Origin: Candidatus Zhuqueibacterota bacterium
GTDB lineage: Bacteria; Zhuqueibacterota; Zhuqueibacteria; Thermofontimicrobiales; Thermofontimicrobiaceae
Assembly (NCBI GenBank): GCA_049322915.1
Contig: JBMOPW010000035.1
Location: 32,001-96,000 of the forward strand
DNA length: 64,000 bases
Direction of reading: 5' to 3'
In this document: positions 26,428 to 56,437 of the stretch, piece by piece
Layout: each line of letters opens with the position of its first letter
How positions within the stretch are numbered: position 1 is the stretch's first letter
Program-made: the position numbers and the translations under genes
Notes under the pieces: model-generated
Database searches by the model: none
Told to the model about the DNA's origin: nothing
What the model saw: only the letters and a program-made list of their open reading frames with translations

Positions 26428-29400
26428 ATGAAAACCTTCACTCATTACATTCGATTTTTGTTGTTCACCGTTTTATTAATGGCCGTTGCCGTTCCCGGCT
26501 ATGGCCAGTTCACAGATATTGGCGCAGGCCTGACCGGGGTTTATTATAGTTCTGTTGCCTGGGGTGACTATGACAACGATGGCGACCTCGACATGCTGCT
26601 CACAGGAAACGACCTGTCCGGTGGCGCCATCGCCAAAGTCTATCAAAATACTGTTGCGGGTTTTGCCGAAATCAGCGCGGGTTTGATGGGGGTGGGACAA
26701 AGCTCTGTGGCCTGGGGCGATTATGACAACGACGGTGATCTGGATATTTTGCTCACCGGAGAAAATGTTTCGGACATCAGTATTACCAAGGTGTATCAAA
26801 ATGCGAATGGTGTTTTCACCGATATCAGTGCGAGCCTGGTCGGAGTTGATGGAGGCTCTGCAGCCTGGGGCGACTATGACAACGACGGCGACCTTGATAT
26901 CCTGCTCACGGGCGCCGGTGGTTATGGCAAAACTGCCAGGATCTATCAGAATAACGGCGGTGTTTTTACCAATATTAGCGCCAACTTGCCCGGCATATCC
27001 AGGGGTGCAACAGCGTGGGGCGATTATGACAACGACGGCGATCTCGATATTTTGCTAACGGGCAGTACCGATTCCGGCCTGATTGCCAAAGTCTATCAGA
27101 ATACCAACGGCATTTTTGCGGACATAGACGCAGGCCTCACCGGGATTTGGTACAGCGCTGTCGCCTGGGGCGACTATGACAACGACGGTGACCTCGACAT
27201 CCTGATTGCGGGCATGGCGGGCAGTACAGGCAGCAGTAATATTGCCAAAATCTATCAAAATACCGCCGGCGTTTTTACCGATATTGGCGCTGACCTGGCA
27301 AGAGTCATGAATGGCTCCGTTGCCTGGGGCGACTATGATAACGATGGCGACCTCGATATCTTGTTAACAGGACAAGATAGTTGGGGTGGGTATATTGCCC
27401 AGGTCTATCAAAATGTTAATGGCATTTTCACAGACATCGGCGCAGATCTGGCGCAAGTTACCAACGCTTCGGTGGCCTGGGGTGATTTTAACAATGATAG
27501 TAAACTTGATATCCTTTTAACGGGTATGTCCGCTTCAGGCGAGATCGCCAAAATCTATCGCAATGACGGCGCCGTCTTAAACACTGTCCCTTCGGCGCCC
27601 GGCAATTTAAGTGTCGTGGTGAACGCCAACGCCGTTGCGCTCAGTTGGGATGCGGCTTCCGATGCTCAAACTCCCAGCGCCGGGCTGACCTACAATCTGA
27701 TGGTCGGCACCAGTTCCAACGGCATTGACATCAATTCACCGATGGCAGACATTGCCACCGGCTACCGCCGCGTGGTGCAATTGGGCGGCACCAATCACAA
27801 TGAATCGTGGACACTGAAGAATTTGCCTGGTGGCGATTATTTCTGGCGCGTGCAGGCCGTGGATGCGGCGTTTGCCGGCTCGCCTTTTTCGGGAGAAGGA
27901 GCGTTCTCCGTCAGCCCCGAAATCGATGTTCAAAGCAACGCCACCTCTATTGCCAACGGCGATAACACGCCTGCAACCGGCGACGGCACCGATTTTGGCG
28001 CTGCGCCAATTCTCACCGGTGTCGTAGATCATGTTTTTACCATTCTCAATACCGGAACCGCGGTTTTAAACCTCACCGGCGCGCCGATGGTGCAAATCAG
28101 CGGAGCGAATGCGGAGGACTTTTCGGTGACGGTAGAGCCGGCAAGCCCGGTGGCGGCGGGCGGTAGCACGAATTTTACTGTGCATTTTGACCCGAGCGCC
28201 GAAGGAGTTCGTACAGCAACCATCAGCATTGCCAATGACGATAGCGATGAGAATCCGTACGAGTTTGCCATTCAAGGCACGGGCGTCCTGGAACCGTTCA
28301 CCGACATGGGCAGCATGGGCGTGGCCAGCGTGGCTAATATTGGTGATCGTTCCTTAGCCTGGGGCGATTATGACAACGACGGCGATCTTGATATTTTGCT
28401 AACGGGTAGTGCCGATTCCGACTTGATCGCCAAAGTCTATCAAAATACAGGCAGCGGTTTCACCGACATCGGCGCGGCCCTACCTGGTTTGAATACTGGT
28501 TCTGTGGCCTGGGGAGATTATGACAATGACGGCGACCTTGACATTTTGCTATCAGGCTACAACGGTCAGGGAGACAATATCGCTCGAGTATACTGCAATG
28601 ACGGCGGCGCTTTCAGCGACATTGGCGCCGGCCTGACCGGGGTTAACGAAAGTTCCGTAGCCTGGGGCGACTATGACAATGACGGCGACCTCGACATCTT
28701 GCTTACGGGCGACAGTGGCTCCGACGAAATTGCCAAAGTCTATCAAAATACCGGCGGCGCTTTTGTCGACATCGGCGCCAGCTTGACCGGAGTTAGTCAG
28801 AGTTCAGTTGCCTGGGGCGACTATGACAATGACGGCGATCTGGACATTTTGCTCACCGGATATCATCCCGGCCAAACATCAGGCGGCGAAACAACTATTA
28901 TCTATCAAAATACCGGGGGCGTTTTCTCCGCTATCGGAGCAAGTGTGAACAGAATTAGAAATGGCTCGGTCGCCTGGGGCGACTATGACAACGACGGCGA
29001 CCTCGATATTCTGCTTACAGGTAATGGCATTGCCGAAATTTATCAGAATACCGACGGCGTTTTTACCGACATCGGCGCGGGTTTGACCGGAGTCTCCAAT
29101 GGCTCCGCAGCCTGGGGCGACTATGACAACGATGGCGACCTCGACATCCTGCTCGCAGGTAGCGTCCCCCAACAATATATCACTAAAATCTATCAGAATA
29201 CCGGCGGTGCTTTCACCGACATTGGCGCAAGCTTGCCCGGACTCTCCCAAAGCTCTCCAACCTGGGGAGACTATGACAACGACGGCGATTTAGACTTTAT
29301 ACAAACAGGATATGATGTTTCAACACCTGAATATAACAAAGTCTGCAAAATCTATCGCAACAATAGCGCCGTATGCAACACCGTGCCTTCCGCGCCCGGC

Positions 29401-32187
29401 AATTTGAACGCGGCGGTGAACGATGAGGAGGTAACGCTTAGCTGGAATGCGGCTTCCGATGCCCAAACGGCGAGCGCCGGGCTGACCTACAATCTCATGG
29501 TGGGCACCACATCCAACGGCGTTGACGTCAGCTCTCCCATGGCGAATGTGAGTAACGGTTGGCGCCGCGTGGTGCAATTGGGCGGGACCAATCACAACGA
29601 GTCTTGGACGCTGAAGAATCTGCCTGTTGGCGATTATTTCTGGCGCGTGCAGGCAGTGGATGCGGCGTTTGCCGGCTCGCCGTTTTCGGCGCAGGCAACA
29701 TTTTCTGTTGGTTCGCCCGAAATGGACGTACAGGGCAACGGCGTCTCCATTGCCGATGGCGATGACACGCCTGCAACCAGCGACGACACCGATTTCGGCG
29801 AGGTCGAAGTGGCAGCCGGCGCTGTCGAGCATACGTTCACCATTGAGAATACCGGCAATACGGAGTTGAACCTCACCGGCGGTTCGCCGCTGGTGGTGGT
29901 GACCGGCAACGGCTTTTCACTGGTCACTGACGCCGCGACACCGGTAGCTGCCGACGGCGGCACTGCCACTTTCACCATTCGCTTTGAGCCAGCAACGGCT
30001 GGCGTCGTTACCGGCAATGTCTCCATTGCTAACGACGACGCGGATGAGAATCCGTATGACTTCGCCATTCAAGGCGCGGGAATGGGCGCGGCGGAGATGG
30101 ATGCGCTCGGCAACTCCGTTTCAATTGCCGACGGCGACGCCACGCCTTCTTCTGCGGATCACACCGACTTCGGCTCTGCCGATATTTCGAGCGGCAGCGT
30201 GGATCGAGTCTTCACAATTGCCAACCTCGGCAACCTGGATTTGAATCTCACCGGCGCGCCGAAAGTGCAAATCGGTGGAGCAAATGCCGCGGACTTCTCC
30301 GTGACCGTGCAGCCGTCGAGTCCAGTTGCAGCGAGCGGCAATACGACTTTCACGGTGCATTTCGATCCGAGCGTGGTTGGCTTGCGCAGCGCGACGGTGA
30401 GCATTGCCAACGACGACGCGAACGAGAATCCGTATGACTTCGCCATTCAAGGCGCGGGAATGGGTACGCCGGAGATGGACGTGCAGGGCAACGGCGCTTC
30501 AATTGCCGATGGCGATAACACGCCTGCAACCAGCGACGATACTGACTTCGGCGAGGTCGAAGTGGCAACGGGTGCAGTCGAGCACACGTTCACCATTGAA
30601 AATACCGGCAATGCGGAGTTGAACCTCACCGGCGGTTCGCCGCTGGTGGTCGTGACCGGCGACGGCTTTTCACTGGTCACCGACGCCGCGACACAGGTAG
30701 CTGCCGACGGCGGCACTGCCACTTTCACCATTCGCTTTGAGCCCACTGCGGCTGGCGTCGCTTCCGGCGCTGTCTCTATTGCCAATGACGATGCGGATGA
30801 AAATCCGTACGACTTTGCCATTCAAGGCAGCGGCGTGGTTCCGGTTGCCAGCGACTGGACCGATGTTTCTCCGGGTACGGCTCCGGCGCCGCGCTACTGG
30901 CATGCTACAGCCTATATTGGCGACGGACAAATCCTCCTGTTTGGCGGAACCAATGGCGGTTACACTGCTTACAATGATACCTGGCTGTACGATATTGACA
31001 GCAATACCTGGACAAATAAACAACCGGCCAATGCCCCCGGTGGACGCGTGCGCATGGCCATGGCCTATATCGGCGATGGCAAAGTGCTGATGTACGGCGG
31101 CAGCCCGGTGATTCCACTATTCGGCGCCAATCCGGCTTCCGAAACCTGGCTCTACAATCTGGCAACAAACAGTTGGACCAAGCTTTCCCCCAGCGGCGCA
31201 CCGCCGGCCCTGGATGGACACGGCATGTGTTTCAGCGGCGGCTCCGACAAAGTGCTGCTATTCGGCGGACGGCTCATCAAACAATATACCCGCAGCGATC
31301 AGACCTGGATTTTTGACCTGAGTGAAAATAAATGGACCCGCAAGAGCGCCAACAAGACGCGCCCCGGCGCTCGCGCCTCGTTTGCCATGGCCTACTTTGG
31401 CACAGACCAGGCCGTGATCTTTGGCGGCTTCACCGGCGTCACCCAGCTTGACGAGACCTGGCTGTATGATCGCGGTTCCGATAAATGGACGAAGCTTTCG
31501 CCCACCGAAAAACCGGCGGCTCGCTACAATCACACCGCCGCCTGGCTTGGCGACGACCGCATCATGATTTTTGGCGGACGCGCCGACATCATCAGCGATC
31601 CCAATAGCAACAGCGAAACGGTCATTTATGGTGACACCTGGGTGTTTGACCAAAGCGACAACACCTGGATCGAGGACGACAACAACGACAGCAGTCCGGC
31701 CGAGCGGGCTAATCCGCGGCTGGCCGAAACCAGCCTGGATGGCTCCAGTCGTATCGTGCTGTTTGGCGGTAATACCGATGCCGAGGTTTTCGGCGATACC
31801 TGGACCTTTGGCGGCGCCGATTATCTCGCCAAAGGAAATATCCTGGTTGAACTGGGCGGCGAGGATGGCGCTGAACAACCGCTACTGACCAATGAACCAG
31901 AGATACCATCGGAATTTGAGCTGGAACAAAACTATCCCAACCCGTTCAATCCGCAGACTGAAATTCGATTCAACCTGCCGGAAGATGGAATCGTATCGCT
32001 GAAAGTGTACGACCTGCTGGGGCGGGAAATAACATCACTGCTGGAAGGTGCGCTGCCGGCCGGCGCTCACCGCGTCATATTCGATGGACATAACCTATCG
32101 AGCGGCATTTATTTATGTGCACTGAAAGTGAATAGCCGCGATGGTAACGCTTCCATGCAAATGAAGCGGATGATCTTAATGAAATAA
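26428..32187 (+). CDS. Large secreted/surface protein: 2x(7 FG-GAP-like repeats + FN3-like domain), 4 Ig-like (choice-of-anchor D/ASH-type) domains, Kelch-like propeller, T9SS type A-like C-terminal domain
   Basis: Signal peptide; 14 WGD(Y/F)..D..LD repeats in two sets of 7; NTVPSAPGNL FN3 starts; ANDD.DENPY.FAIQG x4; LFGG...DTW repeats; LEQNYPNPFNPQTEIRF...VYDLLGRE. Confidence 0.9.
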   Translation: MKTFTHYIRFLLFTVLLMAVAVPGYGQFTDIGAGLTGVYYSSVAWGDYDNDGDLDMLLTGNDLSGGAIAKVYQNTVAGFAEISAGLMGVGQSSVAWGDYDNDGDLDILLTGENVSDISITKVYQNANGVFTDISASLVGVDGGSAAWGDYDNDGDLDILLTGAGGYGKTARIYQNNGGVFTNISANLPGISRGATAWGDYDNDGDLDILLTGSTDSGLIAKVYQNTNGIFADIDAGLTGIWYSAVAWGDYDNDGDLDILIAGMAGSTGSSNIAKIYQNTAGVFTDIGADLARVMNGSVAWGDYDNDGDLDILLTGQDSWGGYIAQVYQNVNGIFTDIGADLAQVTNASVAWGDFNNDSKLDILLTGMSASGEIAKIYRNDGAVLNTVPSAPGNLSVVVNANAVALSWDAASDAQTPSAGLTYNLMVGTSSNGIDINSPMADIATGYRRVVQLGGTNHNESWTLKNLPGGDYFWRVQAVDAAFAGSPFSGEGAFSVSPEIDVQSNATSIANGDNTPATGDGTDFGAAPILTGVVDHVFTILNTGTAVLNLTGAPMVQISGANAEDFSVTVEPASPVAAGGSTNFTVHFDPSAEGVRTATISIANDDSDENPYEFAIQGTGVLEPFTDMGSMGVASVANIGDRSLAWGDYDNDGDLDILLTGSADSDLIAKVYQNTGSGFTDIGAALPGLNTGSVAWGDYDNDGDLDILLSGYNGQGDNIARVYCNDGGAFSDIGAGLTGVNESSVAWGDYDNDGDLDILLTGDSGSDEIAKVYQNTGGAFVDIGASLTGVSQSSVAWGDYDNDGDLDILLTGYHPGQTSGGETTIIYQNTGGVFSAIGASVNRIRNGSVAWGDYDNDGDLDILLTGNGIAEIYQNTDGVFTDIGAGLTGVSNGSAAWGDYDNDGDLDILLAGSVPQQYITKIYQNTGGAFTDIGASLPGLSQSSPTWGDYDNDGDLDFIQTGYDVSTPEYNKVCKIYRNNSAVCNTVPSAPGNLNAAVNDEEVTLSWNAASDAQTASAGLTYNLMVGTTSNGVDVSSPMANVSNGWRRVVQLGGTNHNESWTLKNLPVGDYFWRVQAVDAAFAGSPFSAQATFSVGSPEMDVQGNGVSIADGDDTPATSDDTDFGEVEVAAGAVEHTFTIENTGNTELNLTGGSPLVVVTGNGFSLVTDAATPVAADGGTATFTIRFEPATAGVVTGNVSIANDDADENPYDFAIQGAGMGAAEMDALGNSVSIADGDATPSSADHTDFGSADISSGSVDRVFTIANLGNLDLNLTGAPKVQIGGANAADFSVTVQPSSPVAASGNTTFTVHFDPSVVGLRSATVSIANDDANENPYDFAIQGAGMGTPEMDVQGNGASIADGDNTPATSDDTDFGEVEVATGAVEHTFTIENTGNAELNLTGGSPLVVVTGDGFSLVTDAATQVAADGGTATFTIRFEPTAAGVASGAVSIANDDADENPYDFAIQGSGVVPVASDWTDVSPGTAPAPRYWHATAYIGDGQILLFGGTNGGYTAYNDTWLYDIDSNTWTNKQPANAPGGRVRMAMAYIGDGKVLMYGGSPVIPLFGANPASETWLYNLATNSWTKLSPSGAPPALDGHGMCFSGGSDKVLLFGGRLIKQYTRSDQTWIFDLSENKWTRKSANKTRPGARASFAMAYFGTDQAVIFGGFTGVTQLDETWLYDRGSDKWTKLSPTEKPAARYNHTAAWLGDDRIMIFGGRADIISDPNSNSETVIYGDTWVFDQSDNTWIEDDNNDSSPAERANPRLAETSLDGSSRIVLFGGNTDAEVFGDTWTFGGADYLAKGNILVELGGEDGAEQPLLTNEPEIPSEFELEQNYPNPFNPQTEIRFNLPEDGIVSLKVYDLLGREITSLLEGALPAGAHRVIFDGHNLSSGIYLCALKVNSRDGNASMQMKRMILMK
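29722..30828 (+). repeat. Near-identical intragenic duplication of an Ig-like domain (about 29722-30075 and 30475-30828)
   Basis: Both copies encode MDVQGNG.SIADGD.TPATSDDTDFGEVEVA.GAVEHTFTIENTGN...ENPYDFAIQG with long identical DNA runs, 753 bp apart. Confidence 0.85.
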
Positions 32188-32615: not shown

Positions 32616-34577
32616 TCACTCTTTCTTCGTCAATTTTTCGTATTCCATTCCATGCTCCAGCTTAATCGTTTCTTCCGACATTTTGCCGGTGAAACAGGTG
32701 GTGTTCATGGGATAGACATGGGGATCGAAGAACTGGTAATAGAAATGCCAGACAATGATAGCAACCGTGGCCAGAATGGCTTCATAATAATGAGCGACGG
32801 TGCTGACATCCGAGACCAATTTCGGGAAATACTTCAACGAGATATTTTCAAACCACAAAATGAAGCCGGTCACGCTCATCACAATGGTGCCCCAGATGAG
32901 CGCCCAGTACTCCGCTTTTTCGATGTAGTTATAATACGCGAACTTCGGGCGATCTTTCCGCAGACCCAGATTGTACTGAACATTTTGAATCACATCGAAC
33001 AGATCCTTCAATTTGGGCAGCATTTCCGTAATATGCCGTTTGCCGCGTTTTGTGGTAATGACATAGAACACGTGATAGAACGCGAGCAGCACCATCAATC
33101 CGCCAGCCAGCCGATGCAGATATCCTCGCATGGCAAACCCGCCGTCCCAGCGGGTGAATGGCGCAGCCCACCACGCTTCAGGAAATTTCAGGGCAAAACC
33201 GGTGATCACCAGGGTGATGAATGTGCCCATCAAAATGAAATGCTGGATTCGTTCGTTCAGGGACAACCGCACCATGGTAATTCCGTGCGATAATTCCTCA
33301 AAACTGTGATCCTCCACCCCTTTGATTTTCGCCTTGAATTTATGGATGAAATCGATGAGATTGTGCATGAACATGCCGCCAATGGTACCCACGATGAGGA
33401 ATATATAAAATGTGGTCACATAATAGATTGTCTTCTGCGACGTGGACGATCCTTTGATATGAATCGACCCAATCGCAACCATGTCGCTCACGCCTGGATG
33501 GCAGCTACCGCATGTTTGCTGCAGATTGGCTTTATTAACGGATGACTTGGGGTCGCTGGAGTGCAGTATTTTATGAACACCATGGCAACTGGCGCAGTTC
33601 GCTGTGACGACTGACCCGGCGCGATTTGCCAGTCCATGATAGCTGTCGTTATAACTATCCACTGCTTCTTTTTTTAGTCCGTACTTGGTGACGATCTGTT
33701 CTGCTTCATGACATCTCGGACAGGTTGTCTTTGAAATGACGGTTGAAAAGACCGTCGATTTCGGGTCGGTATGGGATTTAATATCATGTTCGGTATGGCA
33801 ATCGGTACATACCGGTGAATCCGTTGCGCCCGCCAACAATCCCTTGCCATGCACGCCAGCCATATATTCATCGAAAATTCCCTGGTGGCATTGCGCACAT
33901 GTCCTGGGAATATTGAACTTATTTGTCAGAGAAACCGGATTGCTGGAAGGCTGTAAATTGTGAGCGCCGTGACAATCGCTACATTTGGCTGCCTGCATAT
34001 TTCCTTCCTCAAGCGCAGAGCGGTAATGGATGCTCGTTTTATACGCCGCTGCCGGCTCTGAAATCGGAATATTGAACTTTTTCACAATGTTGGGATCAGA
34101 ATGACATTCACCGCAGATTTCGGGTTGATTCAGAACGAACATTGTTGACAGCGAGTCATCGATGGGGAACACGTAATGGGAGGTGTGGCAACTCCAGCAC
34201 TCAGGCGCCTCGAGATTGCCTTTGGCCAGGCTCTTCCCGTGAACGCTGGCCATATACTCCTGAGTCACATCGTCGTGGCAATTCCCGCAGTTCGGTTTTT
34301 CAAGTTTTTCGTCATGCGGAAGTTCGGTGATGGCGCTGTGACAATCGACGCAGGAAAGTCCGGCATGAACTGAATTGGAAAATTTTTCGAAATGGACAAA
34401 GAGGCTATCCTCCTTCCCATCTTCGTTCAGCCGGGTCAATGCCTTGTCGCTGTGGCATTCCATGCAGTCTTCGCTTGAAATATCCTGGCTCGCTCCAATT
34501 CCGGGAAATAGCAATACCATGGAAATTATGAAAGTCAGATAAACCGAAACCAACTTGCCTGTCATACTGTTCCTCAT
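32616..34577 (-). CDS. 11-heme cytochrome c fused to cytochrome b membrane domain (CbcL-like quinol oxidoreductase)
   Basis: Signal peptide; 11 CxxCH; ERIQH...LHR...EKAEYWALIWG...AHYYEAILA...VWHFY. Confidence 0.9.
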   Translation of the reverse strand: MRNSMTGKLVSVYLTFIISMVLLFPGIGASQDISSEDCMECHSDKALTRLNEDGKEDSLFVHFEKFSNSVHAGLSCVDCHSAITELPHDEKLEKPNCGNCHDDVTQEYMASVHGKSLAKGNLEAPECWSCHTSHYVFPIDDSLSTMFVLNQPEICGECHSDPNIVKKFNIPISEPAAAYKTSIHYRSALEEGNMQAAKCSDCHGAHNLQPSSNPVSLTNKFNIPRTCAQCHQGIFDEYMAGVHGKGLLAGATDSPVCTDCHTEHDIKSHTDPKSTVFSTVISKTTCPRCHEAEQIVTKYGLKKEAVDSYNDSYHGLANRAGSVVTANCASCHGVHKILHSSDPKSSVNKANLQQTCGSCHPGVSDMVAIGSIHIKGSSTSQKTIYYVTTFYIFLIVGTIGGMFMHNLIDFIHKFKAKIKGVEDHSFEELSHGITMVRLSLNERIQHFILMGTFITLVITGFALKFPEAWWAAPFTRWDGGFAMRGYLHRLAGGLMVLLAFYHVFYVITTKRGKRHITEMLPKLKDLFDVIQNVQYNLGLRKDRPKFAYYNYIEKAEYWALIWGTIVMSVTGFILWFENISLKYFPKLVSDVSTVAHYYEAILATVAIIVWHFYYQFFDPHVYPMNTTCFTGKMSEETIKLEHGMEYEKLTKKE

Positions 34578-34624: not shown

Positions 34625-34640
34625 TGCAATTATCTTGCCA
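34625..34640 (-). promoter_or_regulatory. Sigma-54 promoter TGGCAAGATAATTGCA
   Basis: Near-consensus -24/-12 on the minus strand, 48 nt upstream of ATG 34577; a sigma-54 activator gene is adjacent. Confidence 0.75.
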
Positions 34641-35134: not shown

Positions 35135-36460
35135 ATGGAACTGAATCCATCCCTGACAAACGATATATTAGACTCAATTGGCGAAGGATTGTTCACAGTA
35201 AATAAGGATTTTAAGATTAATTATTTTAATCGGGCTGCCGAGCGAATTACAGGTCTGAAACGCAAGGACGTCTACGGCAAATTTTGCAAACATATTTTTA
35301 AGTCAAATCGATGCTTCATCAAATGCCCGATCGCCCATGTTTTGGAGACAGGGAAAAACATCTATGACCTGGAATCGAAGATCAGAAACGTCAATGGCAA
35401 TTTCATCCCGATCAAAATGAACGTCTCCATTCTGCGCAACAACGAAAATGAGCCGGTGGGCGGCGTGATTTCCTTTCGCGATATATCCGAGTTGGAGATA
35501 TTGCGTGATAAGCACATCAAAAAGAACCTGTTTTATGGCATCATCGGCCACACCAAAGTGATGCAGGAAATCTTCGAATTGATCGAGGAGATTTCCGATT
35601 CGGATGCCACTGTGCTCATTCAGGGTGAATCCGGCACAGGTAAGGAAATGGTTGCCAACGCCGTACAGGCCACAAGTCTGCGCAAAGATCAGCCGTTTGT
35701 CAAAGTGAACTGTTCGGTTTTCACGCCGCAACTTCTGGCCAGCGAGTTGTTTGGTCACGTGAAGGGCGCGTTCACCGGAGCAATAAAAGAGCGACCGGGT
35801 CGATTTGAAATTGCGGACGGTGGGACCATATTCCTGGATGAGGTCGGCGAAATGCCTCTGCAAATGCAGTTGCAGCTGTTACGGGTGCTGCAGGAAGGCA
35901 CCTTCGAGCGGGTTGGCGAATCGGAGACGCGCCGCGTTGACATTCGGGTGATTGCCGCGACGAATAAAAATATCAAAGCATCCATCGCAGATGGGCATTT
36001 TCGGGAGGATTTGTACTATCGGCTCAACGTGATTCCCATTGAAATTCCTCCGATCAAAAAGCGCCCGGAAGACATCCCGCACCTGATAAAACATTTTTTG
36101 AAAAAATTTTCATTGATCTATAATAAAAACATACACGACATCGATGATACTGCGCTCGAATTACTCACCCATTATCCCTGGCCGGGCAATGTCCGCGAAT
36201 TGGAAAATGCCCTGGAGTACGCGTTTGTGCGGACGAAAGATAAAAAGATTATCGAAGCGATTAAATTGCCGCCGAATGTTCGGGAGCACGCTGACTTATC
36301 GTTGAATCAACCAGGCGCGTGTGAAATCGATAGCGAGTCTTCTCACATCATGCACTTACTGGAAAAATATCAATGGAATAAAACGAAAGTCGCCAAAGAA
36401 CTTGGCATTGGTCGCAGCACGCTCTGGCGCAAAATGAAATCCTTCACTGAGAAGGCCTGA
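35135..36460 (+). CDS. PAS-domain sigma-54-dependent activator (one-component bEBP, Fis-type HTH)
   Basis: N-terminal PAS with C-x8-C-x3-CP; GESGTGKE, ELFGHVKGAFTGA, FLDEVG, FREDLYYRLNV, WPGNVREL, LGIGRSTLWRK. Confidence 0.93.
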   Translation: MELNPSLTNDILDSIGEGLFTVNKDFKINYFNRAAERITGLKRKDVYGKFCKHIFKSNRCFIKCPIAHVLETGKNIYDLESKIRNVNGNFIPIKMNVSILRNNENEPVGGVISFRDISELEILRDKHIKKNLFYGIIGHTKVMQEIFELIEEISDSDATVLIQGESGTGKEMVANAVQATSLRKDQPFVKVNCSVFTPQLLASELFGHVKGAFTGAIKERPGRFEIADGGTIFLDEVGEMPLQMQLQLLRVLQEGTFERVGESETRRVDIRVIAATNKNIKASIADGHFREDLYYRLNVIPIEIPPIKKRPEDIPHLIKHFLKKFSLIYNKNIHDIDDTALELLTHYPWPGNVRELENALEYAFVRTKDKKIIEAIKLPPNVREHADLSLNQPGACEIDSESSHIMHLLEKYQWNKTKVAKELGIGRSTLWRKMKSFTEKA

Positions 36461-37407: not shown

Positions 37408-38733
37408 ATGAAAGTAAAACTTTTTACCATTTGTAGTCTGTTGCTACTCTCCATGATTCTTATTTTTACCTGGGGATGTACTGATAAATACAAACCCGCT
37501 CCCAGCGTTTTCTCCTCTGTGGAAGAATCAAGTTGTACGCACTGTCACCTTGATGCAACTCTACTGAAACAAGTGGCCACGCCAATTCCCCCGGATGAAG
37601 GCGAATCAGGCGAGGGTTGAGGCGGCGCTGTGTCTCAGTTAGAGGCATGGGAAATGGTACTTGTTGATAACAGTTTTCTGAATACAAAACACGGCAGCTT
37701 CGGATGCACGTCATGTCACAAGGGTAATAAAGACGCGTACGACAAAGAGACCGCTCACGTCAGCCTGGTCGCTGCGCCGAGCGAAAATGATGCCACGTAC
37801 TGCTCCGGTTGCCATGAGGATATTGTGGCTCATTATGCATCCTCCCTTCACAAGACACAAAAAGGGTACTTCAAGCGAATCGAAAATCGATTGGGGTACA
37901 GCATAGAAAGTGACGCGGGCATAATGGAGAAATATGATGAGGAATGCGGGAAATGCCATGTCAGTTGTGGGCAATGCCACATCTCCCGACCGGTTTCAGT
38001 AAAAGGCGGATTCATCGCCGGGCACAATTTTGGCGCGCCGACGCGGGATAACAATTGCGTGGCATGTCACGGCAGCCGCGTTGGGGCAGAATACCTCGGA
38101 CAAAACGAAAACTATGCGGCTGATGTCCACCGCTACAAACCAGGCGGCAGCAATTGCACCATGTGCCACACCGGCATGGAAATGCACGGGACCGGCGAGG
38201 AATTCGACTACCGTTACCTGAATACGGATATGCCGCGCTGTGAAAATTGTCATGCAGATGTCGACACAATTAATTTCTACCATCAAAAGCATGTGTCCAG
38301 CACCACGATACCGACGCTCTCCTGTCAGGTATGCCATTCACAGGATTATAAAAACTGCAATAGCTGCCACACCGGCGGCGCCGGCATTACCGGGGATTCC
38401 TATTTCAAATTCAAGATTGCCAAGAATAAATTCAATCTCGAATCTGCAAACCGTACCTATGATTACGTGGCAGTCCGGCACATTCCGATTGCGCCGGACA
38501 CATACGCAAGTTGGGGAATAACTGATTTACCAAATTACAACACTGAACCTACGTGGAAATATGCAACGCCGCACAACATTCAACGCTGGACCGCTCGGAC
38601 AGATACGACGGGTAGCACCCGATGCTCGAGCAAATGCCATAATTCGACGACCTATTATTTAACTTCAGCCGACTTATTCGACTATGAAGTCGAAGCAAAT
38701 AAAGATATTATTATGGACGACAAACTCAAATAG
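37408..38733 (+). CDS. Putative selenocysteine-containing multiheme c-type cytochrome lipoprotein (441 aa, Sec71 at TGA 37618-37620)
   Basis: Track ORFs 37408-37620 and 37630-38733 are in the same frame, separated by one TGA plus 3 sense codons; the lipobox (FTWG-C) is only in the first part; 10 CxxCH plus 1 CxxxCH; SECIS-like hairpin directly after the TGA. Confidence 0.8.
37628..37650 (+). other. Candidate bacterial SECIS hairpin for the multiheme cytochrome
   Basis: CTGTGTCTC-AGTTA-GAGGCATGG: 9-bp stem (3 G-U pairs), loop begins 16 nt after the UGA and contains GU. Confidence 0.65.
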
Positions 38734-38778: not shown

Positions 38779-39783
38779 ATGTACAAGAAAATTCCTGTTC
38801 TGTTCTTGATTTTATCATTAGCTTTGTTCATGGTAGTTGGTTGCGATGACGACGAAACCACGGAACCTGAAGAAATTAATGAGTTCGAACTGTTAACGGA
38901 AGTCGGTGATGTTTACGTTGCTAATTACACAACCCAGGGTGGGTTGGGCGTCAACACGACCATCACTGCTGTATTCGACAACCTGACAGACGGCAATACC
39001 GCCAATGATCCGTATATCATTGACTACCGCTCCGCTGCGGATTACGCGATTGTTCATATTAAAGGCGCCCATTCAATGGCCATGACCGATCTGGTCGCGA
39101 AACTTGATGATGGCACCATTCCCAAAGATAAAACCATTTTGAACGTTTGCTACACCGGTCAAACGGCAAGCTCCGCCACTGCATTTTTGAACCTGTTAGG
39201 ATACGAAGCACAGAACCTGTCTTACGGCATGTGCTCGGTCGATACATCCTTCAGTAACACCAAACAGTGGAAAAACGCTGTGAAAACTGACGAACATGCC
39301 GGCGATGTTGTCTCTACAGCTTCCACCACCACGACAACACACGATTTCCCGACGCTGTCCACAGGTGGAACCACCGCCGAAGAAATCTTCAAAGCACGTT
39401 TCAATGAAGTGATTGCCGCAAGCTGGCCCAAAATTGATGCCAACTTAGTGTGGGATAATCCAGGCAACTACTTCATCGTCAATTACTGGCCGGCCGCCGA
39501 ATATACCAATCCAGGCCATATTCCCGGCGCTTACCAGTTCTCACCAAATACAACGCTGCTCAGCACAGCGCAGTTAAACCTGTTGCCGACGGATAAAACC
39601 ATTGTGGTTTACTGCTACACTGGTCAGACATCGGCTCAGATTTGTACCTATCTGACCATGCTGGGCTACGATGCAAAGAGCTTGCTGTACGGATTCAATG
39701 GTTTCGCTCATGGAATTATGACGAAAAACAAGTATGCCGGTTCAGCAGCACCTGGAACATACGATGCTATTTTAGAAAAATAA
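38779..39783 (+). CDS. Tandem rhodanese-domain lipoprotein (sulfurtransferase)
   Basis: Lipobox MVVG-C; two domains (IDYR...HIKGA / GHIPGA), each with a CYTGQT active-site loop; AGGAGG SD. Confidence 0.88.
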   Translation: MYKKIPVLFLILSLALFMVVGCDDDETTEPEEINEFELLTEVGDVYVANYTTQGGLGVNTTITAVFDNLTDGNTANDPYIIDYRSAADYAIVHIKGAHSMAMTDLVAKLDDGTIPKDKTILNVCYTGQTASSATAFLNLLGYEAQNLSYGMCSVDTSFSNTKQWKNAVKTDEHAGDVVSTASTTTTTHDFPTLSTGGTTAEEIFKARFNEVIAASWPKIDANLVWDNPGNYFIVNYWPAAEYTNPGHIPGAYQFSPNTTLLSTAQLNLLPTDKTIVVYCYTGQTSAQICTYLTMLGYDAKSLLYGFNGFAHGIMTKNKYAGSAAPGTYDAILEK

Positions 39784-39796
39784 CTTAACGAGAACG

Positions 39797-39829
39797 AGCG
39801 GCATTCTTTCACAGTGGAAGAATGCCGCT
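39797..39829 (+). terminator. Strong intra-operon hairpin or partial terminator between rhodanese and porin genes
   Basis: AGCGGCATTCTTTC...GGAAGAATGCCGCT followed by TTCATTTATT. Confidence 0.6.
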
Positions 39830-39864
39830 TTCATTTATTAAAACTTAAGCTGAGTAAACGAGCT

Positions 39865-41058
39865 ATGATACCAAAAATAAGAATAGGTCTTCTCAGTCTA
39901 TTGATGGTCTCTTTGAGTGTTGGCTATGTGTACGGGATCGATTTTCACGGCAAAACGTCCAACACCGTTTATAGCTATGAAGATACAACTCAACATACTC
40001 GCCTGTTTCAATTCATTCGCTTTAGCCTGGAATCACCCAAATTGAGCAACCTCTCTCTGAATACATCTCTCAGAGCTTTAACCGATCTCAACGAAACACT
40101 GGAAGACGAACAGCGATTCAAAGCTTACGCGCTCAATTTGCAGTACAAAAATCTGTTCAACCGAGTCGATCTCGTCCTCGGGCGCCAGTTTCTCCACCCG
40201 GGCGCCGCACTTGGAGGATTGGACGGTCTGTACACCAAAGTCAAAATTTCGAACCGAATGAATATCTCGGCGTACGCTGGCGCAGAAGCCCACTTCAACA
40301 GCAGCCTCAAAATTTACAAATCAGAGGACAGTTTTGTCGCCGGCGGCTTATTCGAAATGAATCGGTTCTTCTCCACAGGGACGCAATTGTTTTACCTGCA
40401 AAAATCCAATGAAGACGGATTGTTCTGGCAACTCGCCGGACTGAACCTGACCAATAGCTCGTTGCCCCGGACCAATGTCCGGTTGCAAGCGCACTTCGAT
40501 CTTCAAACATCCGCTTTTCACAGGTTGATGTTCTCGGCTAAACATGATGTGAATGATAAAATTTCACTCAATGCCGGCTTTAAAAATCAAATGCCGCAAA
40601 TCTACGCCAACTCCTTTTTCACACTATTTGATGTCGACGGTTACACCCAATTCAATGCTGGCTGCACCTACAAAATGGTTCAGAATCTCTTTCTGAGCGG
40701 GCAGTACCAACTCGTCCAGTTCGACCAGGAGTCGGCCAACCGCATTTTTTTCACCGTCAATAATCTGAACGGCAGCATTGGCGTCATTTATGAGACAGGA
40801 TACGCCGGCGAACAATTGGGGCTCATTCTCGACTATGCCCATTCCATCACACCTGCGTTGTTAGCGTCGATCAACATTGATTATTCCCGGTATAAAACAG
40901 AAAAAGTGTTCGAATACGAAAATCAGATCGCCAATGCGGTACGATTATCCTATCGTTTTCAACGTCACTGGTCCATCGATCTAGAGTATCAATGGTTGAC
41001 AAACCGTTTTAAAGAACAGGATTCACGAATTTTAAATCATGTCCACTTTAGTTGGTAA
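39865..41058 (+). CDS. Putative outer-membrane beta-barrel (porin of a porin-cytochrome complex)
   Basis: Signal peptide from ATG 39865; alternating amphipathic strands (LVLGRQF...LDGL), C-terminal aromatic residue (VHFSW); flanked by multiheme cytochromes. Confidence 0.7.
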   Translation: MIPKIRIGLLSLLMVSLSVGYVYGIDFHGKTSNTVYSYEDTTQHTRLFQFIRFSLESPKLSNLSLNTSLRALTDLNETLEDEQRFKAYALNLQYKNLFNRVDLVLGRQFLHPGAALGGLDGLYTKVKISNRMNISAYAGAEAHFNSSLKIYKSEDSFVAGGLFEMNRFFSTGTQLFYLQKSNEDGLFWQLAGLNLTNSSLPRTNVRLQAHFDLQTSAFHRLMFSAKHDVNDKISLNAGFKNQMPQIYANSFFTLFDVDGYTQFNAGCTYKMVQNLFLSGQYQLVQFDQESANRIFFTVNNLNGSIGVIYETGYAGEQLGLILDYAHSITPALLASINIDYSRYKTEKVFEYENQIANAVRLSYRFQRHWSIDLEYQWLTNRFKEQDSRILNHVHFSW

Positions 41059-41070
41059 GGGATAATAATC

Positions 41071-41949
41071 ATGAAAAAAATTGTATGTGTCGTGCTGGGG
41101 CTTCTTGTTGCTTTCTTTTTAAGCAATGTCTCAACGGCCCAGGAATTAGAACTCATCTTTTCCCATAAATATCACGCCATAGAGGTTGAAGCAGAATGCG
41201 AAGCCTGTCATGCTGCCTCGGCAAGCATGCTGTCAACCGATAACCTGTTGCCCGACATGGAAAAATGTTATACCTGCCACAGCCAGGATGAAGAATGCAG
41301 CAAATGCCACAAAGACCCGGACAATGCCATCGTCTATCCCCGAATCACGGATTACATCGCCAAGTTCCCGCACAGCACACACGCTGCCAAAGGACTGGCC
41401 TGCGAAAAATGTCATGCCGGAGTCGCTGAAAGTGGCAACATCCTGGAAAAACACCTGCCAACCATGGCCAGTTGCACCGACTGTCACGATCAGCTTGCCC
41501 GGGAGAATTATTGCTATACCTGCCATAACACCGGCGAGGCCCTGAAGCCTGGCGATCACAATTTAGCCTGGAACAAGGAGCATGGATTGGCTTCATACAC
41601 GGCCGATAACTCCTGCAAAACCTGCCATCCGGACGATATGTGTTTGAATTGCCACCGCGGCGATAATCTGGATCATCAGGTGCACTCACTGAATTTTGTG
41701 AATAATCACAGTCTCCAGGCAAAGGGCAACAAAGAGAATTGCTACACCTGTCATGAAGAATTGTCCTTCTGCGTCGACTGCCATCGCCAGCGAATGGTGA
41801 TGCCGCGGAACCACGCGACAGCGAGTTGGTCCAATACTTCTTCCGGAGGTGGGCATGCGCGAGCCGCGAAACTGGATATGGATTCATGCCTGAGCTGCCA
41901 TTCCGATGCCGCTGGAGATCCTGTGTGCGTTCAGTGTCACCAGAAATAA
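41071..41949 (+). CDS. Periplasmic 12-heme cytochrome c (c3/c7-like repeats)
   Basis: Signal peptide (STA-QE); FSHKYH / FPHSTH; 12 CxxCH. Confidence 0.9.
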   Translation: MKKIVCVVLGLLVAFFLSNVSTAQELELIFSHKYHAIEVEAECEACHAASASMLSTDNLLPDMEKCYTCHSQDEECSKCHKDPDNAIVYPRITDYIAKFPHSTHAAKGLACEKCHAGVAESGNILEKHLPTMASCTDCHDQLARENYCYTCHNTGEALKPGDHNLAWNKEHGLASYTADNSCKTCHPDDMCLNCHRGDNLDHQVHSLNFVNNHSLQAKGNKENCYTCHEELSFCVDCHRQRMVMPRNHATASWSNTSSGGGHARAAKLDMDSCLSCHSDAAGDPVCVQCHQK

Positions 41950-46257: not shown

Positions 46258-47430
46258 TCACTCGAAAGATTTGCGTTGGAAGTACTCGCTGTAAGCCGCC
46301 CACAGGCTGGTAACAAAACGCTCCGTGTCGTCTGCCGGTTTCCCTTCTGCCTGTTGCAATGATTCTTCCAATTTAGTGTTGATCATCTTGCTGATCTCGT
46401 GAAATCTATCAATTTCCTTCTGATACCATTGCATTGTGTCCGAGCCAATCTTCAGCCCCGGCAGTTCATTGCTGAGATTCTCCGGTTCGATGTTGCACAT
46501 CCATCCAAGTTCATACGGCTTGATATTGACATAATCGATATGGTCTTCGAGATTGGCATTGATCGATACCACGGTTCCGCTGATGGGAGCGGGAAAATTC
46601 AGGGACTGGTCGCCGCGCTGCACGGTGAACAGCAAATCACCTTTTTTGACTTTCTGCCCCTTCTTTGGCAGAACAACGCTTTTGATTTTGCTCAAAATCT
46701 TTTGGGAGAAATCATCGATGCCGACGCGCGCCAATCCGTTCAAATCAATTCTGACCCAGGTGTGAGTCGGCGCTATGAAAATCCCGGCTGGCACATTAAA
46801 TTCATGGCTTGATTTGGACTCGCCGTGCGAAGGAGTAATGAGATGCACCGCCGGCTTGGTGACACGCTCGATCTTGTCCTGGCGCCGGATTAACGACTTG
46901 TTGACAAAATCCACCAATTCATCTTCAGTGAATGGCTTTTGCACATAATCCGTGGCGCCGTATTTCATGGTCGCCACAGCGGTTTCAATGGTCGCGTAGC
47001 CGGTGATGACGATGATATCGATATCCGGACGCAGATGTTTTGCAGCCTTGGTCACTTCAACGCCATCCATCACTGGCATTTTCAAATCCGTGAACAGGAA
47101 ATCGTATTCGGTCTTCTTCAAAAGCCCCAGGGCCTCGGGACCGGTCTCCACGGTATCGATTGAATATCCGGCCAGCACCAGTATTTTTCGGAAACTTGCC
47201 AGTACCACTTCTTCATCGTCCACTGCCAGAATTTTAGCTTTGGGATGGTCGACTTCGACCCGTTTCAGGGATTTGGCCTCTTCCGTGAAATCTAACCGAA
47301 GGCCAATGTCCAGAGCTTCTTCCCGTTCTTTCTTAAGTTTGGAATGCTCCATTTTTTTAAGAACGATTCGTAAAACGGCGTCAGCCAGAATGAAAATAAT
47401 AACGGTTACAATCAGAAATAAGACGACCAT
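46258..47430 (-). CDS. Membrane-anchored receiver domain fused to a GcvH-like domain lacking the lipoyl Lys
   Basis: N-terminal TM; REC (AVDDE, TDLKMP, QKPF); HTWV...RVGIDDF...APISGTVVSIN...PYELGW. Confidence 0.85.
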   Translation of the reverse strand: MVVLFLIVTVIIFILADAVLRIVLKKMEHSKLKKEREEALDIGLRLDFTEEAKSLKRVEVDHPKAKILAVDDEEVVLASFRKILVLAGYSIDTVETGPEALGLLKKTEYDFLFTDLKMPVMDGVEVTKAAKHLRPDIDIIVITGYATIETAVATMKYGATDYVQKPFTEDELVDFVNKSLIRRQDKIERVTKPAVHLITPSHGESKSSHEFNVPAGIFIAPTHTWVRIDLNGLARVGIDDFSQKILSKIKSVVLPKKGQKVKKGDLLFTVQRGDQSLNFPAPISGTVVSINANLEDHIDYVNIKPYELGWMCNIEPENLSNELPGLKIGSDTMQWYQKEIDRFHEISKMINTKLEESLQQAEGKPADDTERFVTSLWAAYSEYFQRKSFE

Positions 47431-47506: not shown

Positions 47507-48301
47507 TTAGATGCGGCGAAGGCTCAAGTTATTCAGGTCTTTCTCCAGATTTGTCGGAACGACTTGAATCAGCCAGCCATCATGATACGGAGAGGTATTT
47601 AATTTATCCATCTCGCGTTCCAGGCGCTTGTTCAAAGCGACAATCTTACCGCCTAGTGGCGCCCACACCATGTGATTGAGATAGTCTTCCGAGATAATTC
47701 GCACACATAAATTCCCCTGTGATATCTCATTATTGACAAGCGGGAATTCTATTGAATTGATCGTTCCCATGCAGCCAGCGAACGTTTCCCCCAAACCCAG
47801 CGTGCAGATGCCGTCGCTATTCAATTTTGTCCAGGAGTGCTGACCTAATAAATAATACGGCGCTCCTTCGCTATTCTGCTGCGCGTCGTTCTGGAGTTGT
47901 AGGGATGATTGCGTTTCAGTTGCCCGTTCACTGAATTTCTTCGCACGAAAAATGACGCCAGCCAATTCTTCAAAATCAAACGGTTTGGGAATACAATCAA
48001 ATGCACCTGTCCTGAAAATTTTCACGGCATTGGCGTGTGAAGCATAGCCGGTGATGATGATGATTGGAATTGTCGCATTCAATTTTCTGGCATATTCGAT
48101 CACTTCGATTCCGGATTTACCAGGCAACATGAGATCCGACAGTATTAATTGATATTGATTTTTATCGAGTTTATCGAAAGCGCCCTCTGCGCTTTGCGCC
48201 ATATCGACATGAAATCCTTCGACGCTTAATATTCGTCTGGCTGCTTCAGCAACCACCAGTTCATCTTCGACCAGCAGAATATGATTATTTGGGTTCGTCA
48301 T
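47507..48301 (-). CDS. Receiver domain fused to a GcvH-like domain lacking the lipoyl Lys
   Basis: REC (LVEDE, SDLMLP, PKPF); HSW...LGL...APLGGKIVALN...PYHDGW. Confidence 0.85.
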   Translation of the reverse strand: MTNPNNHILLVEDELVVAEAARRILSVEGFHVDMAQSAEGAFDKLDKNQYQLILSDLMLPGKSGIEVIEYARKLNATIPIIIITGYASHANAVKIFRTGAFDCIPKPFDFEELAGVIFRAKKFSERATETQSSLQLQNDAQQNSEGAPYYLLGQHSWTKLNSDGICTLGLGETFAGCMGTINSIEFPLVNNEISQGNLCVRIISEDYLNHMVWAPLGGKIVALNKRLEREMDKLNTSPYHDGWLIQVVPTNLEKDLNNLSLRRI

Positions 48302-49931: not shown

Positions 49932-50735
49932 TCAACACGTAATGTCACCCAGCACACTGGTCACTAAATTGAGATAGTGCTCGGGAGGCAATGAATTGAT
50001 CAGATCCCTTGAAAATACGCCCATGTCATCCAGCAGAATATCTGATGTGAGCGAACCGGCCTGGCAGGTCTCTGACAGTTTGTACTCCAGCCATTTCATT
50101 TCATCCAGATACCAGGAGAATAACGTCTCTCCATTTCGACAATATGAAAGATCCTGGCTTAAATTTTTTGGTTCCACAATCAACATCCACCCGCGATTCA
50201 CCGGATCGAGCGTCAACTGGTTCGGCGCGAGTTGCAGTTCTGGATTCACGACTTTGATCCGGCCAGCTACCGGCGTCGGAATGGAAAAATTGTACTTCCC
50301 GCGTTTCACGTGGCCACAGCATCCGCCTTTTGTAATTTTTTCATCGACGCGGGGAAGCGTGATTTCATCGACAGAACCTAATACAACAGCGGCGACATTA
50401 TCAATGCCCAGTTTCACCTCGTGGGGACCAACAATCTCGATCCAGACATGCCGGGAACTGACAAAATAATTTTCACTCTGCTTGATTTTCACCAGGTGAT
50501 CGAGCGATGAAAAATATCTGAATGAATTGCGCGTGATAACGCTGGCGTCGGTGAAAAATCCCCGCAACGCCTTCTCCAACGGGCAGTTTTCGCACTCAAA
50601 ATTTCTATTGCAAATCTTGTAGGATAACTCTCCCAGTTCAACCCAATCACAGACACTATCACTTTTATCGATCAAGTGGGATAATGGTTTTGGTCTGGAA
50701 TTTCCCATGAGTATAAATCCCTTCTCATCTGACAT
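49932..50735 (-). CDS. GcvH-like protein with N-terminal Cys cluster
   Basis: C-x11-C-x5-C-x2-CP N-terminus (CDW...KICNRNFECENCP); HVW...KLGID...TPVAGRIKVVN...DPVNRGW. Confidence 0.78.
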   Translation of the reverse strand: MSDEKGFILMGNSRPKPLSHLIDKSDSVCDWVELGELSYKICNRNFECENCPLEKALRGFFTDASVITRNSFRYFSSLDHLVKIKQSENYFVSSRHVWIEIVGPHEVKLGIDNVAAVVLGSVDEITLPRVDEKITKGGCCGHVKRGKYNFSIPTPVAGRIKVVNPELQLAPNQLTLDPVNRGWMLIVEPKNLSQDLSYCRNGETLFSWYLDEMKWLEYKLSETCQAGSLTSDILLDDMGVFSRDLINSLPPEHYLNLVTSVLGDITC

Positions 50736-56428: not shown

Positions 56429-56437
56429 TCACGTAAA

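Follow-up and report, generated by a model that had tools for sequence, protein, structure and literature searches.

A probable selenocysteine-containing undecaheme lipoprotein cytochrome, encoded beside a rhodanese lipoprotein in Candidatus Zhuqueibacterota

Multiheme cytochromes c that contain selenocysteine (Sec) form a small and recently recognised group of proteins. Here we describe a further candidate, referred to below as the selenocytochrome, which is encoded at positions 37408-38733 of a 64,000-nucleotide stretch of DNA from a Candidatus Zhuqueibacterota bacterium (assembly GCA_049322915.1, contig JBMOPW010000035.1, positions 32,001 to 96,000). This whole stretch is called the window, and coordinates are positions on its forward strand. 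Comparison with homologous sequences makes it nearly certain, in our judgement, that 37408-38733 is one gene in which the UGA codon at 37618-37620 would be read as Sec with the help of a short downstream hairpin. The predicted product is exported, anchored through Cys24 and furnished with 11 c-type hemes, and carries Sec71 in an invariant G-E-G-U-G-G loop of an N-terminal module that precedes a body resembling the octaheme tetrathionate reductase (OTR). Gene identity and the mechanism proposed below, taken together, provide an overall explanation that we regard as very probable. The protein and its relatives make up a separate selenoprotein family that is widespread, has an OTR-like core and has so far gone undescribed; it is a variant of the multiheme cytochrome selenoproteins.

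The in-frame UGA codon and its conservation

The first open reading frame (ORF) of the gene (37408-37620, +) encodes 70 residues comprising a signal peptide, a lipobox and one CTHCH heme motif, and ends in TGA at 37618-37620. After the TGA the frame runs GGC GGC GCT GTG into a second ORF of 367 residues (37630-38733), which contains nine CxxCH motifs and one CxxxCH and has no signal peptide of its own. A preliminary description of the window, made from the letters alone, had reported this arrangement and had proposed that both ORFs belong to a single 441-residue lipoprotein with Sec at position 71. The window sequence confirms the arrangement, and the proposal itself is now strongly supported by the conserved TGA/Cys site, the hairpin and the Sec machinery described below. 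In the read-through protein the ten CxxCH motifs start at residues 43, 100, 132, 180, 187, 217, 250, 278, 306 and 317, the single CxxxCH occupies residues 406-411, and U71 stands in the context PPDEGESGEG-U-GGAV. Outside the heme motifs the only Cys or Sec residues are C9 in the signal peptide, C24 in the lipobox and U71; in the mature protein Sec71 is the sole Cys/Sec besides heme motifs and lipobox. A lipobox was recognised by regular expression in 70 of 77 loci examined, and the gene is present as a single copy in the source genome.

Homologous loci were collected from species-representative genomes. At least 601 stretches matched and at least 585 were confirmed as relatives, of which the best 80 were analysed; in each locus the reading frame was followed upstream from the conserved body. 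Motif and ligand conservation was counted in 71 aligned full-length sequences, whereas hairpins and start codons were counted in 74 TGA sequences; the taxon names given for carriers are the labels on public records of metagenome-assembled genomes (MAGs). The codon aligned to U71 is TGA in 73 of the 80 loci, with carriers from many phyla, and a Cys codon in four (TGT in L017 and L088, TGC in L018 and L072). Of the remaining three loci, L036 has Arg (CGG), the motif is unrecognisable in L092, and in L055 the region was lost at a contig end. Neither TAA nor TAG occurs at this codon in any of the 80 loci, so that the comparison suggested in the preliminary description found TGA or Cys kept between conserved flanks. 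Furthermore, the leader (signal peptide, CxxCH and LLK-VA-P) and the body are colinear in a single frame in all assessable loci. Conservation of the motif is close to complete (G68 in 71 of the 71 sequences, E69 in 66, G70 in 69, U or C71 in 70, G72 in 70 and G73 in 71); the spacer before it (residues 58-67) is variable and rich in acidic residues and Pro, and a conserved V-P-P-L-E-A-W-E-K-V segment follows it.

A search of 5.8 billion proteins returned 2315 relatives. Among the best 120 of these, 116 are called at 313-392 residues and cover 72-83% of the query, the outcome to be expected of gene callers that stop at the TGA. The four that are full-length comprise two Cys proteins (GEG-C-GGAV and GES-C-GGEV; P0024 and P0119), one with Arg and one without the motif. 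In a quick maximum-likelihood tree of the 71 sequences with midpoint root, the Cys pair L017/L018, L072 (Cys, on a long branch) and L036 (Arg) are nested in Sec-bearing clades. The features by which selenoproteins are usually recognised in comparative work are thus found at this site, and residue 71 is assigned as a putative Sec on these grounds.

The same ORFs could be taken for two genes, namely a 70-residue monoheme lipoprotein that ends at the TGA and a 367-residue cytochrome that starts at GTG 37630 behind a GAGG. Indeed, gene callers annotate the 116 short homologs in this way, some in-frame ATG, GTG or TTG lies within 12 codons past the TGA in 64 of 74 sequences, and the GAGG that the preliminary description had pointed out 7 nt before the GTG is present at 37619-37622. 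However, this GAGG is merely the coding sequence of U-G-G (UGA-GGN), and only 39 of 74 sequences have a start codon at the position of GTG 37630. Attachment of c-type hemes by cytochrome c maturation requires export, although the body has no signal peptide. Moreover, the supposed stop is TGA in 74 of 74 sequences, whereas the true terminators of the TGA-type genes vary (TAA in 29, TAG in 20 and TGA in 18 of 67), the four Cys homologs are single ORFs, and the flanking residues are invariant with no gap or change of frame. We therefore hold a pair of genes to be very improbable, and prefer a single read-through gene.

A lone in-frame stop also looks like a recent nonsense mutation, which would leave a gene broken in the source genome or by an error of assembly. 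Against this, 73 of the 80 loci, which come from many phyla, have TGA at the same codon. Within the own phylum, matches at E <= 1e-40 were found in 43 of 167 genomes (27 of 105 high-quality genomes). An in-frame TGA was seen in 38 of the 46 matches; one of these spans only residues 216-413, so that its TGA lies elsewhere, and one has an extra TAA. There is next to no chance, in our view, that the gene is broken.

The machinery for Sec insertion, which the preliminary description had named as something to be confirmed, was found complete in the source genome, with selA (561.6 bits), selB (364.6 bits, cut-off 242), two copies of selD and one tRNA-Sec with anticodon TCA. Beyond this genome, selA exceeded its cut-off in five of five TGA-type genomes tested, which are MAGs each with a different taxon label, and in two of five Cys- or Arg-type genomes, a count to which MAG incompleteness applies as a caveat. 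These results bear on the idea that the UGA is read as an ordinary residue, either as Gly (NCBI table 25) or as Trp or Cys by near-cognate decoding. The codon does lie within a run of Gly (GEG-x-GG), where Gly would be sterically tolerable. Yet the sense replacements found are Cys in four loci and Arg in one, and a Gly or Trp codon inside an intact G-E-G-x-G-G motif occurs in none of the 80 loci; TGA is the normal terminator in 18 of the 67 genes, the presence of selA tracks the TGA form, and a formate-dehydrogenase-type gene in the window, fdnG, has a canonical Sec UGA at U188. Reading of the TGA as Gly was accordingly rejected, given the lack of Gly codons at the site and the complete Sec machinery, and decoding as any ordinary residue is hardly credible. 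Sec remains the preferred identity of residue 71.

Two other genes of the source genome also carry TGA in frame. The second selD copy, outside the window (contig C2:57472-58398, -, locus L011), has one in-frame TGA and is itself probably a selenoprotein. The fdnG gene, which encodes a molybdopterin subunit (57461-60487, +), is split in the annotation at its Sec TGA (58022-58024, ...ARI-U-HSATV); MobA-like, FdhD and FdhE genes lie upstream of it (55000-57382), and genes for 4Fe-4S and NrfD-type subunits downstream (60484-62392).

The hairpin downstream of the UGA

Bacterial Sec codons are accompanied by a selenocysteine insertion sequence (SECIS), and a stem-loop that is a putative SECIS is found directly 3' of this UGA. 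The hairpin, CUGUGUCUC-AGUUA-GAGGCAUGG, spans 37628-37650 with a 7-bp core (37630-37648) that begins 9 nt past the UGA and a loop 16 nt past it, which is where the preliminary description had placed the loop.

Pairs were counted in an ungapped alignment of the 74 TGA sequences, with helix columns 13-20 set against columns 24-31. Standard pairs occupy 77.1% of the cells of this helix, compared with 38-53% when the partner strand is slid by 1-3 columns, and both sides have changed in six of the eight pairs. The covariation score of 0.229 (shuffled mean 0.120) was reached by none of 500 shuffles. Because related sequences may beat such shuffles through kinship alone, without any structure, a control that keeps the peptide was added, in which 200 synonymous recodings were made of the 30-nt segment of each sequence. 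The mean folding energy is -10.35 kcal/mol for the native segments versus -6.02 kcal/mol for their recodings (mean z -1.83); 35 of the 74 fall in the lowest 5% of their own recodings and 64 in the lowest 20%. Furthermore, loop positions G21 and U23 are invariant in the 74 sequences, and the hairpin is lost (z -0.4 each) in L018, which has Cys, and in L036, which has Arg.

Several observations weigh against this interpretation. The window hairpin alone is weak: its z is -1.33, with 25 of 200 shuffles folding equally well, its 71-nt context has a z of +0.36, and a fraction of 0.075 of its own synonymous recodings fold equally well. For this reason it is the comparative evidence, and not the single hairpin, that carries the case for a SECIS. 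From the alignment of the 74 sequences RNAalifold derived no consensus pairing, a null result for which the hairpins of a minority of loci, moved 3 nt downstream, may account. An Rfam search with the hairpin gave only chance-level matches to unrelated families (E 1.9-8.3). Among Cys-type loci, L017 has retained a stable hairpin (z -2.1) and L072 also folds one, so that part of the pairing may stem from the conserved peptide. Finally, the identity of Sec71, nearly certain as we judge it to be, is itself drawn from comparative sequence criteria, and this too counts as a reservation. The preliminary description had further likened the hairpin to the SECIS of fdnG. The likeness is only generic: the stem-loop of fdnG has greater length and stability (-22 kcal/mol, z -2.71), and more nucleotides separate its loop from the UGA.

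Predicted fold, hemes and known relatives

Pfam recognised only generic multiheme domains in the selenocytochrome, and NCBIfam nothing at E <= 0.01. An AlphaFold2 model was built from a 55-sequence alignment (26 read-through references and 29 database proteins), with a mean predicted local distance difference test score (pLDDT) of 87.4 and a predicted template modelling score of 0.81. The model is ordered around Sec71 (residues 61-80, pLDDT 74-87) and disordered at residues 23-38; this disorder fits a lipoprotein tether. When the model was compared with 48,161 chains using VIA-align, the best match was 1sp3_A (Z 8.7, root mean square deviation 4.3 Å, 254 of 436 residues aligned over 92-441), followed by the next at Z 4.6, and a profile of the family matched the same chain in the PDB at E 2e-6. 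This entry is a Shewanella octaheme cytochrome, which we take to be the tetrathionate reductase OTR. The model and the profile point to a body with a distant OTR-like fold and three more hemes, to which residues 39-91, carrying heme 1 and the Sec loop, have been added at the N-terminus. The likeness to OTR is a moderate one: Foldseek found nothing in the PDB at E <= 0.001 (best 0.14, to HAO), and a Z of 8.7 is about what models lacking clear relatives usually reach with their best match.

OTR is a multiheme oxidoreductase for sulfur compounds. The Shewanella oneidensis enzyme (1sp3), best structural and profile match to residues 92-441 of the selenocytochrome, differs from it in having 8 hemes instead of 11, and the N-terminal module with heme and Sec, as well as the lipid anchor, is found only in the selenocytochrome. 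In addition, the loop of the selenocytochrome family that aligns with the Lys/Cys-pair loop of OTR has no conserved Lys or Cys. At the level of family models, the selenocytochrome locus scores 12.6 bits to TIGR04315 (OTR), for which the cut-off is 375 bits; a true OTR is encoded on another contig of the same genome (596.4 bits).

Each of the 11 heme motifs is kept by 69-71 of the 71 sequences. Only ten His residues outside the motifs are conserved (95, 117, 148, 206, 241, 260, 292, 295, 358 and 389), which leaves one heme without a conserved His partner, and no conserved Met was found among the 71 aligned sequences. Sec71, as the sole spare chalcogen residue, might then be the distal ligand of this heme, in a His/Sec pair that would tune the heme or be akin to the His/Cys hemes of TsdA, SoxAX and MccSep; in the last of these, a multiheme selenoprotein, a Cys-ligated heme is described beside the Sec in the part of PMC13510729 available. 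Conserved Lys315, Lys384 or Tyr314 (n = 71) could serve as the eleventh ligand instead, which speaks against His/Sec ligation and equally against the His-lacking heme of the mechanism proposed below. Enzymes of the OTR type, moreover, reportedly have an open distal site on a Lys-ligated catalytic heme, with Cys nearby. We consider ligation by Sec71 quite unlikely, and favour a role for Sec71 as nucleophile.

The closest functional parallel is MccSep, known by gene as ExtKL (Geobacter sulfurreducens GSU2937-2936; NF040886). The biochemistry of a multiheme cytochrome selenoprotein was first shown in 2026 with this protein. According to the available portion of PMC13510729, it is a soluble periplasmic tetramer with five hemes and polysulfide reductase activity that also supported selenite-dependent methyl viologen oxidation, in which the Sec is U325 (...PDGUPTPNR) and Cys239 ligates heme 2. 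Both proteins are multiheme cytochromes of the c type, and each has a single Sec encoded by UGA, with a hairpin resembling a SECIS close behind the codon; in both, annotation splits the gene at the TGA, and Cys-type relatives are nested among Sec types. The extKL gene belongs to the cluster extHIJKLMNOPQS, as given in the part of PMC5877670 available, and ExtH is a rhodanese-like lipoprotein according to the title of a reference cited in PMC13510729. With ExtH and the porin ExtI, the Geobacter cluster contains two kinds of protein that the selenocytochrome cluster likewise has. By analogy, both cytochromes probably work alike, with a selenol nucleophile beside a heme chain and chalcogen-bond substrates.

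The preliminary description had named ExtKL as precedent and had left undecided whether the two are related. At the family level they are not, the selenocytochrome being set apart by hidden Markov models and by the published description of MccSep. The selenocytochrome is not matched by NF040886 at E <= 0.01, and the best score in the genome is 34.6 bits (cut-off 250), on another contig. It has 11 hemes (ten CxxCH and one CxxxCH) where MccSep has five, its Sec is N-terminal (residue 71 in GEGUGG) and that of MccSep C-terminal, it is a lipoprotein and MccSep is soluble, and it has no conserved Cys outside the heme motifs, the lipobox and position 71 to match the heme-ligating C239. Chains of MccSep did not come up among the structural matches, in PDB copies that may not include them (for Foldseek, up to April 2026). 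No ExtKL-family gene was found in the six carrier genomes searched (the source genome and five others).

A selenoproteome review of 2026 lists, in the part of PMC13188914 available, only three cytochrome-type families, ExtKL, GSU2204 and OTR, the last including Sec-containing members; the selenocytochrome matches no model of these three. The text of the Haft 2022 preprint contains neither 'cytochrome' nor 'heme', and no description or catalogue entry of the selenocytochrome family was found by searching the literature outside the supplements of PMC13510729 and PMC13188914, in which members may be listed.

Neighbouring genes, proposed function and distribution

The features of the selenocytochrome gene and of the genes that follow it are listed in Table 1.

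Table 1 Features of the selenocytochrome gene and its downstream neighbours (window coordinates)
Feature	Position	Strand	Details
Sec-containing undecaheme lipoprotein cytochrome c (putative), whole gene	37408..38733	+	441 residues; stop TAG 38731-38733; colinear with full-length or read-through homologs in most of 80 loci
Lipoprotein signal peptide to lipobox Cys24	37408..37479	+	Cys24 codon 37477-37479; ...IFTWGC; Cys24 in 71/71 aligned full-length sequences
Predicted disordered tether from lipid anchor to first heme, residues 23-38	37474..37521	+	pLDDT <50
Heme motif 1, CTHCH, residues 43-47, in N-terminal module missing from OTR	37534..37548	+	C43, C46 and H47 in 71/71; 1sp3 alignment begins at residue 92
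G-E-G-U-G-G motif, residues 68-73	37609..37626	+	Near-invariant across 71 aligned sequences
UGA, putatively read as Sec71	37618..37620	+	TGA in 73/80 loci; genome has Sec machinery
SECIS-type hairpin (putative), 7-bp core 37630-37636 / 37642-37648, loop AGUUA 37637-37641	37628..37650	+	Fold, pair counts, covariation and recoding control
Predicted OTR-like multiheme body, residues 92-441, heme motifs 2-11	37681..38730	+	VIA-align and profile match to 1sp3_A; all motifs conserved
Partner lipoprotein, double rhodanese; CYTGQT active loops with Cys124 and Cys279	38779..39783	+	PF00581 E 1.6e-22; lipobox
Outer-membrane beta-barrel, 22 strands (predicted)	39814..41058	+	AlphaFold pLDDT 82.1; Foldseek OprD/Occ/AlgE porins E ~2e-9
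Periplasmic cytochrome, 12 CxxCH, signal peptide without lipobox	41071..41949	+	Pfam Cytochrome_C7 and c3
Small c-type cytochrome lipoprotein, 140 residues	41993..42415	+	Conserved downstream in part of the loci

A homolog of the rhodanese lipoprotein adjoins the selenocytochrome in 74 of the 80 loci, across phyla. It lies mostly downstream, and upstream in, among others, most loci labelled Dehalococcoidia. Both active-site residues, C124 and C279, are invariant in 65 sequences, in loops that read C-[YW]-[TS]-G-[QH]-[TS]. Of the six loci without this neighbour, L078 and L093 have almost no flank, and the Arg-type L036 is another. We infer that the Sec-cytochrome and the rhodanese, anchored to one face of the same membrane, form the conserved functional unit.

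Some loci depart from this pattern. In L038, L060 and L062 the partner has about 650 residues and three or four rhodanese active-site loops rather than two. In L036 the motif has become GE-I-R-GG with loss of Sec/Cys, and a rhodanese neighbour was not found by the cytochrome probe, while the porin and second cytochrome are kept; in L092, with its degenerate motif, the rhodanese match is only weak. The chalcogen residue and the rhodanese may be lost together.

The beta-barrel has a homolog in 25 of the 80 loci, the window included; in most of these the 12-CxxCH cytochrome follows the barrel, and often the small cytochrome is also present. The porin ORF is listed from GTG 39814, but its first 18 residues are disordered and the helix of the signal peptide starts at residue 20, so that the real start is probably the ATG near 39865, to judge from the model. 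A barrel, a 12-heme cytochrome and a lipoprotein cytochrome are here encoded together, as expected from the genes of a porin-cytochrome conduit. The layout (lipoprotein multiheme cytochrome, outer-membrane barrel and periplasmic multiheme cytochrome) is the same as that of MtrCAB in Shewanella and of the Pcc and Ext clusters in Geobacter. The locus has nonetheless no significant homology to MtrC or MtrA (PF22113 at 29.7 bits, just below its 30-bit cut-off), its 22-strand barrel is like porins of the OprD/Occ type, and only 25 of 80 loci have conduit genes next to the selenocytochrome.

These neighbours, together with the analogy to MccSep and OTR, suggest how the protein could work. The co-anchored double-rhodanese lipoprotein would capture sulfane sulfur as a persulfide and present it; Sec71 would act as the nucleophile that attacks the S-S bond; and the heme chain would deliver or remove electrons, in either direction. 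The heme without a conserved distal His would be the likely catalytic heme beside Sec71. In the source organism, electrons could pass via the 12-heme periplasmic cytochrome threaded through the 22-strand barrel, and such a porin-cytochrome conduit would put the selenoenzyme at the cell surface. There is about an even chance, in our estimate, that the selenocytochrome is a surface or periplasmic terminal oxidoreductase for sulfane or other chalcogen bonds (polysulfide/S0, tetrathionate, thiosulfate and possibly selenite). The substrate class is taken from the neighbouring genes and from analogy only, and this has to be set against the proposal, which we hold with the same reserve.

Two other functions have to be considered for Sec71. 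The first is a mobile arm like that of SoxY, which, as the preliminary description had suggested, would carry sulfane sulfur or selenium to a heme; the Sec loop would take its load from the rhodanese and swing to the heme site. The carrier arm of SoxY has a C-terminal GGCGG motif, hence a chalcogen residue flanked by Gly as in the selenocytochrome, and likewise stands in a context of sulfur metabolism; the Cys-type loci L072 and L088 even read GGCGG. The variable acidic and Pro-rich spacer in front of the motif and the nearly universal rhodanese partner would also suit such an arm. Against the arm, the Sec loop is modelled as ordered and the disordered stretch is residues 23-38, the motif is internal and continues into the conserved V-P-P-L-E-A-W-E-K-V segment, whereas the SoxY arm is C-terminal, and no SoxY domain is among the Pfam matches. 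A swinging arm therefore seems rather unlikely.

The second is a role outside sulfur metabolism, such as reduction of selenite or tellurite, or extracellular metal reduction in which the Sec would be protective or redox-sensing. The selenite-dependent activity reported for MccSep in PMC13510729, as far as the available part goes, would agree with it, as would the porin, periplasmic multiheme and lipoprotein cytochrome layout of the window, which is that of metal-reducing conduits. However, the partner found universally across the phyla is a rhodanese, an enzyme that transfers sulfur or selenium, and the porin and second cytochrome are found in only 25 of 80 loci; those labelled Dehalococcoidia have the cytochrome-rhodanese pair without porin. 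We give a non-sulfur role a small chance, and retain the nucleophilic attack on sulfane sulfur as the preferred mechanism.

We advance, tentatively, the broader possibility that heme-selenium enzymes evolved independently a second time, in the form of this family. The enzyme would be a surface-anchored, OTR-like undecaheme protein in which a Gly-flanked selenol gates or ligates the His-lacking heme and receives sulfane sulfur directly from a dedicated double-rhodanese lipoprotein, and it might serve as the hitherto unrecognised terminal sulfur/polysulfide (or tetrathionate) respiratory enzyme of MAGs labelled KSB1, Calditrichota, Dehalococcoidia, Phycisphaerae, Gemmatimonadota and others.

Among the best 80 of at least 585 relatives, the closest (70% identity) are from MAGs labelled candidate division KSB1. 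The labels on further carriers are Calditrichota, Ignavibacteriota, Planctomycetota (Phycisphaerae), Gemmatimonadota, Chloroflexota (Dehalococcoidia and Anaerolineae), Thermodesulfobacteriota and others. In public annotation the homologs are cut at the TGA, with the consequence that the signal peptide, first heme and selenium site are lost, and the remainder is named 'hypothetical protein' or 'cytochrome c family protein'. Recognition of the family would correct hundreds of gene models, given the at least 585 relatives in species-representative genomes, and would make selenium a requirement of energy metabolism in several phyla that are poorly known and for the most part uncultured. The pair of Sec-cytochrome and rhodanese is a candidate for the handling of elemental sulfur or polysulfide in the carriers.

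Two large fusion proteins encoded in the window, at 13451-16225 (-) and 32616-34577 (-), combine numerous CxxCH motifs with a membrane domain of the cytochrome b type (Ni_hydr_CYTB). Both are candidate quinol-oxidising entry points for an electron chain to the conduit. The second, a multiheme cytochrome c joined to a membrane domain of the cytochrome b561 type, is divergent from a gene for a PAS/sigma-54 activator (35135-36460), and a -24/-12 site of the sigma-54 type, TGGCAAGATAATTGCA, lies about 48 nt upstream of it at 34625-34640 (-), with one mismatch. The activator may control this fusion gene rather than the selenocytochrome. The idea that it drives the selenocytochrome was dropped, as no convincing site was found upstream of the operon. 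The window contains 36 sigma-54 matches where 39 are expected by chance, and a site with at most two mismatches lies directly upstream in only 7 of 70 homologous loci.

Two further observations concern other parts of the window. Glycine-cleavage H-protein (lipoyl-carrier type) domains occur in three neighbouring genes (46258-47430, 47507-48301 and 49932-50735, all -), two of which are fused to response-regulator receiver domains, with a HAMP histidine kinase gene adjoining (48285-49832), an unusual combination of domains. Finally, 26428-32187 (+) encodes a 1919-residue FG-GAP/Kelch repeat protein with a C-terminal sorting domain of the Por (type IX) secretion system, T9SS.

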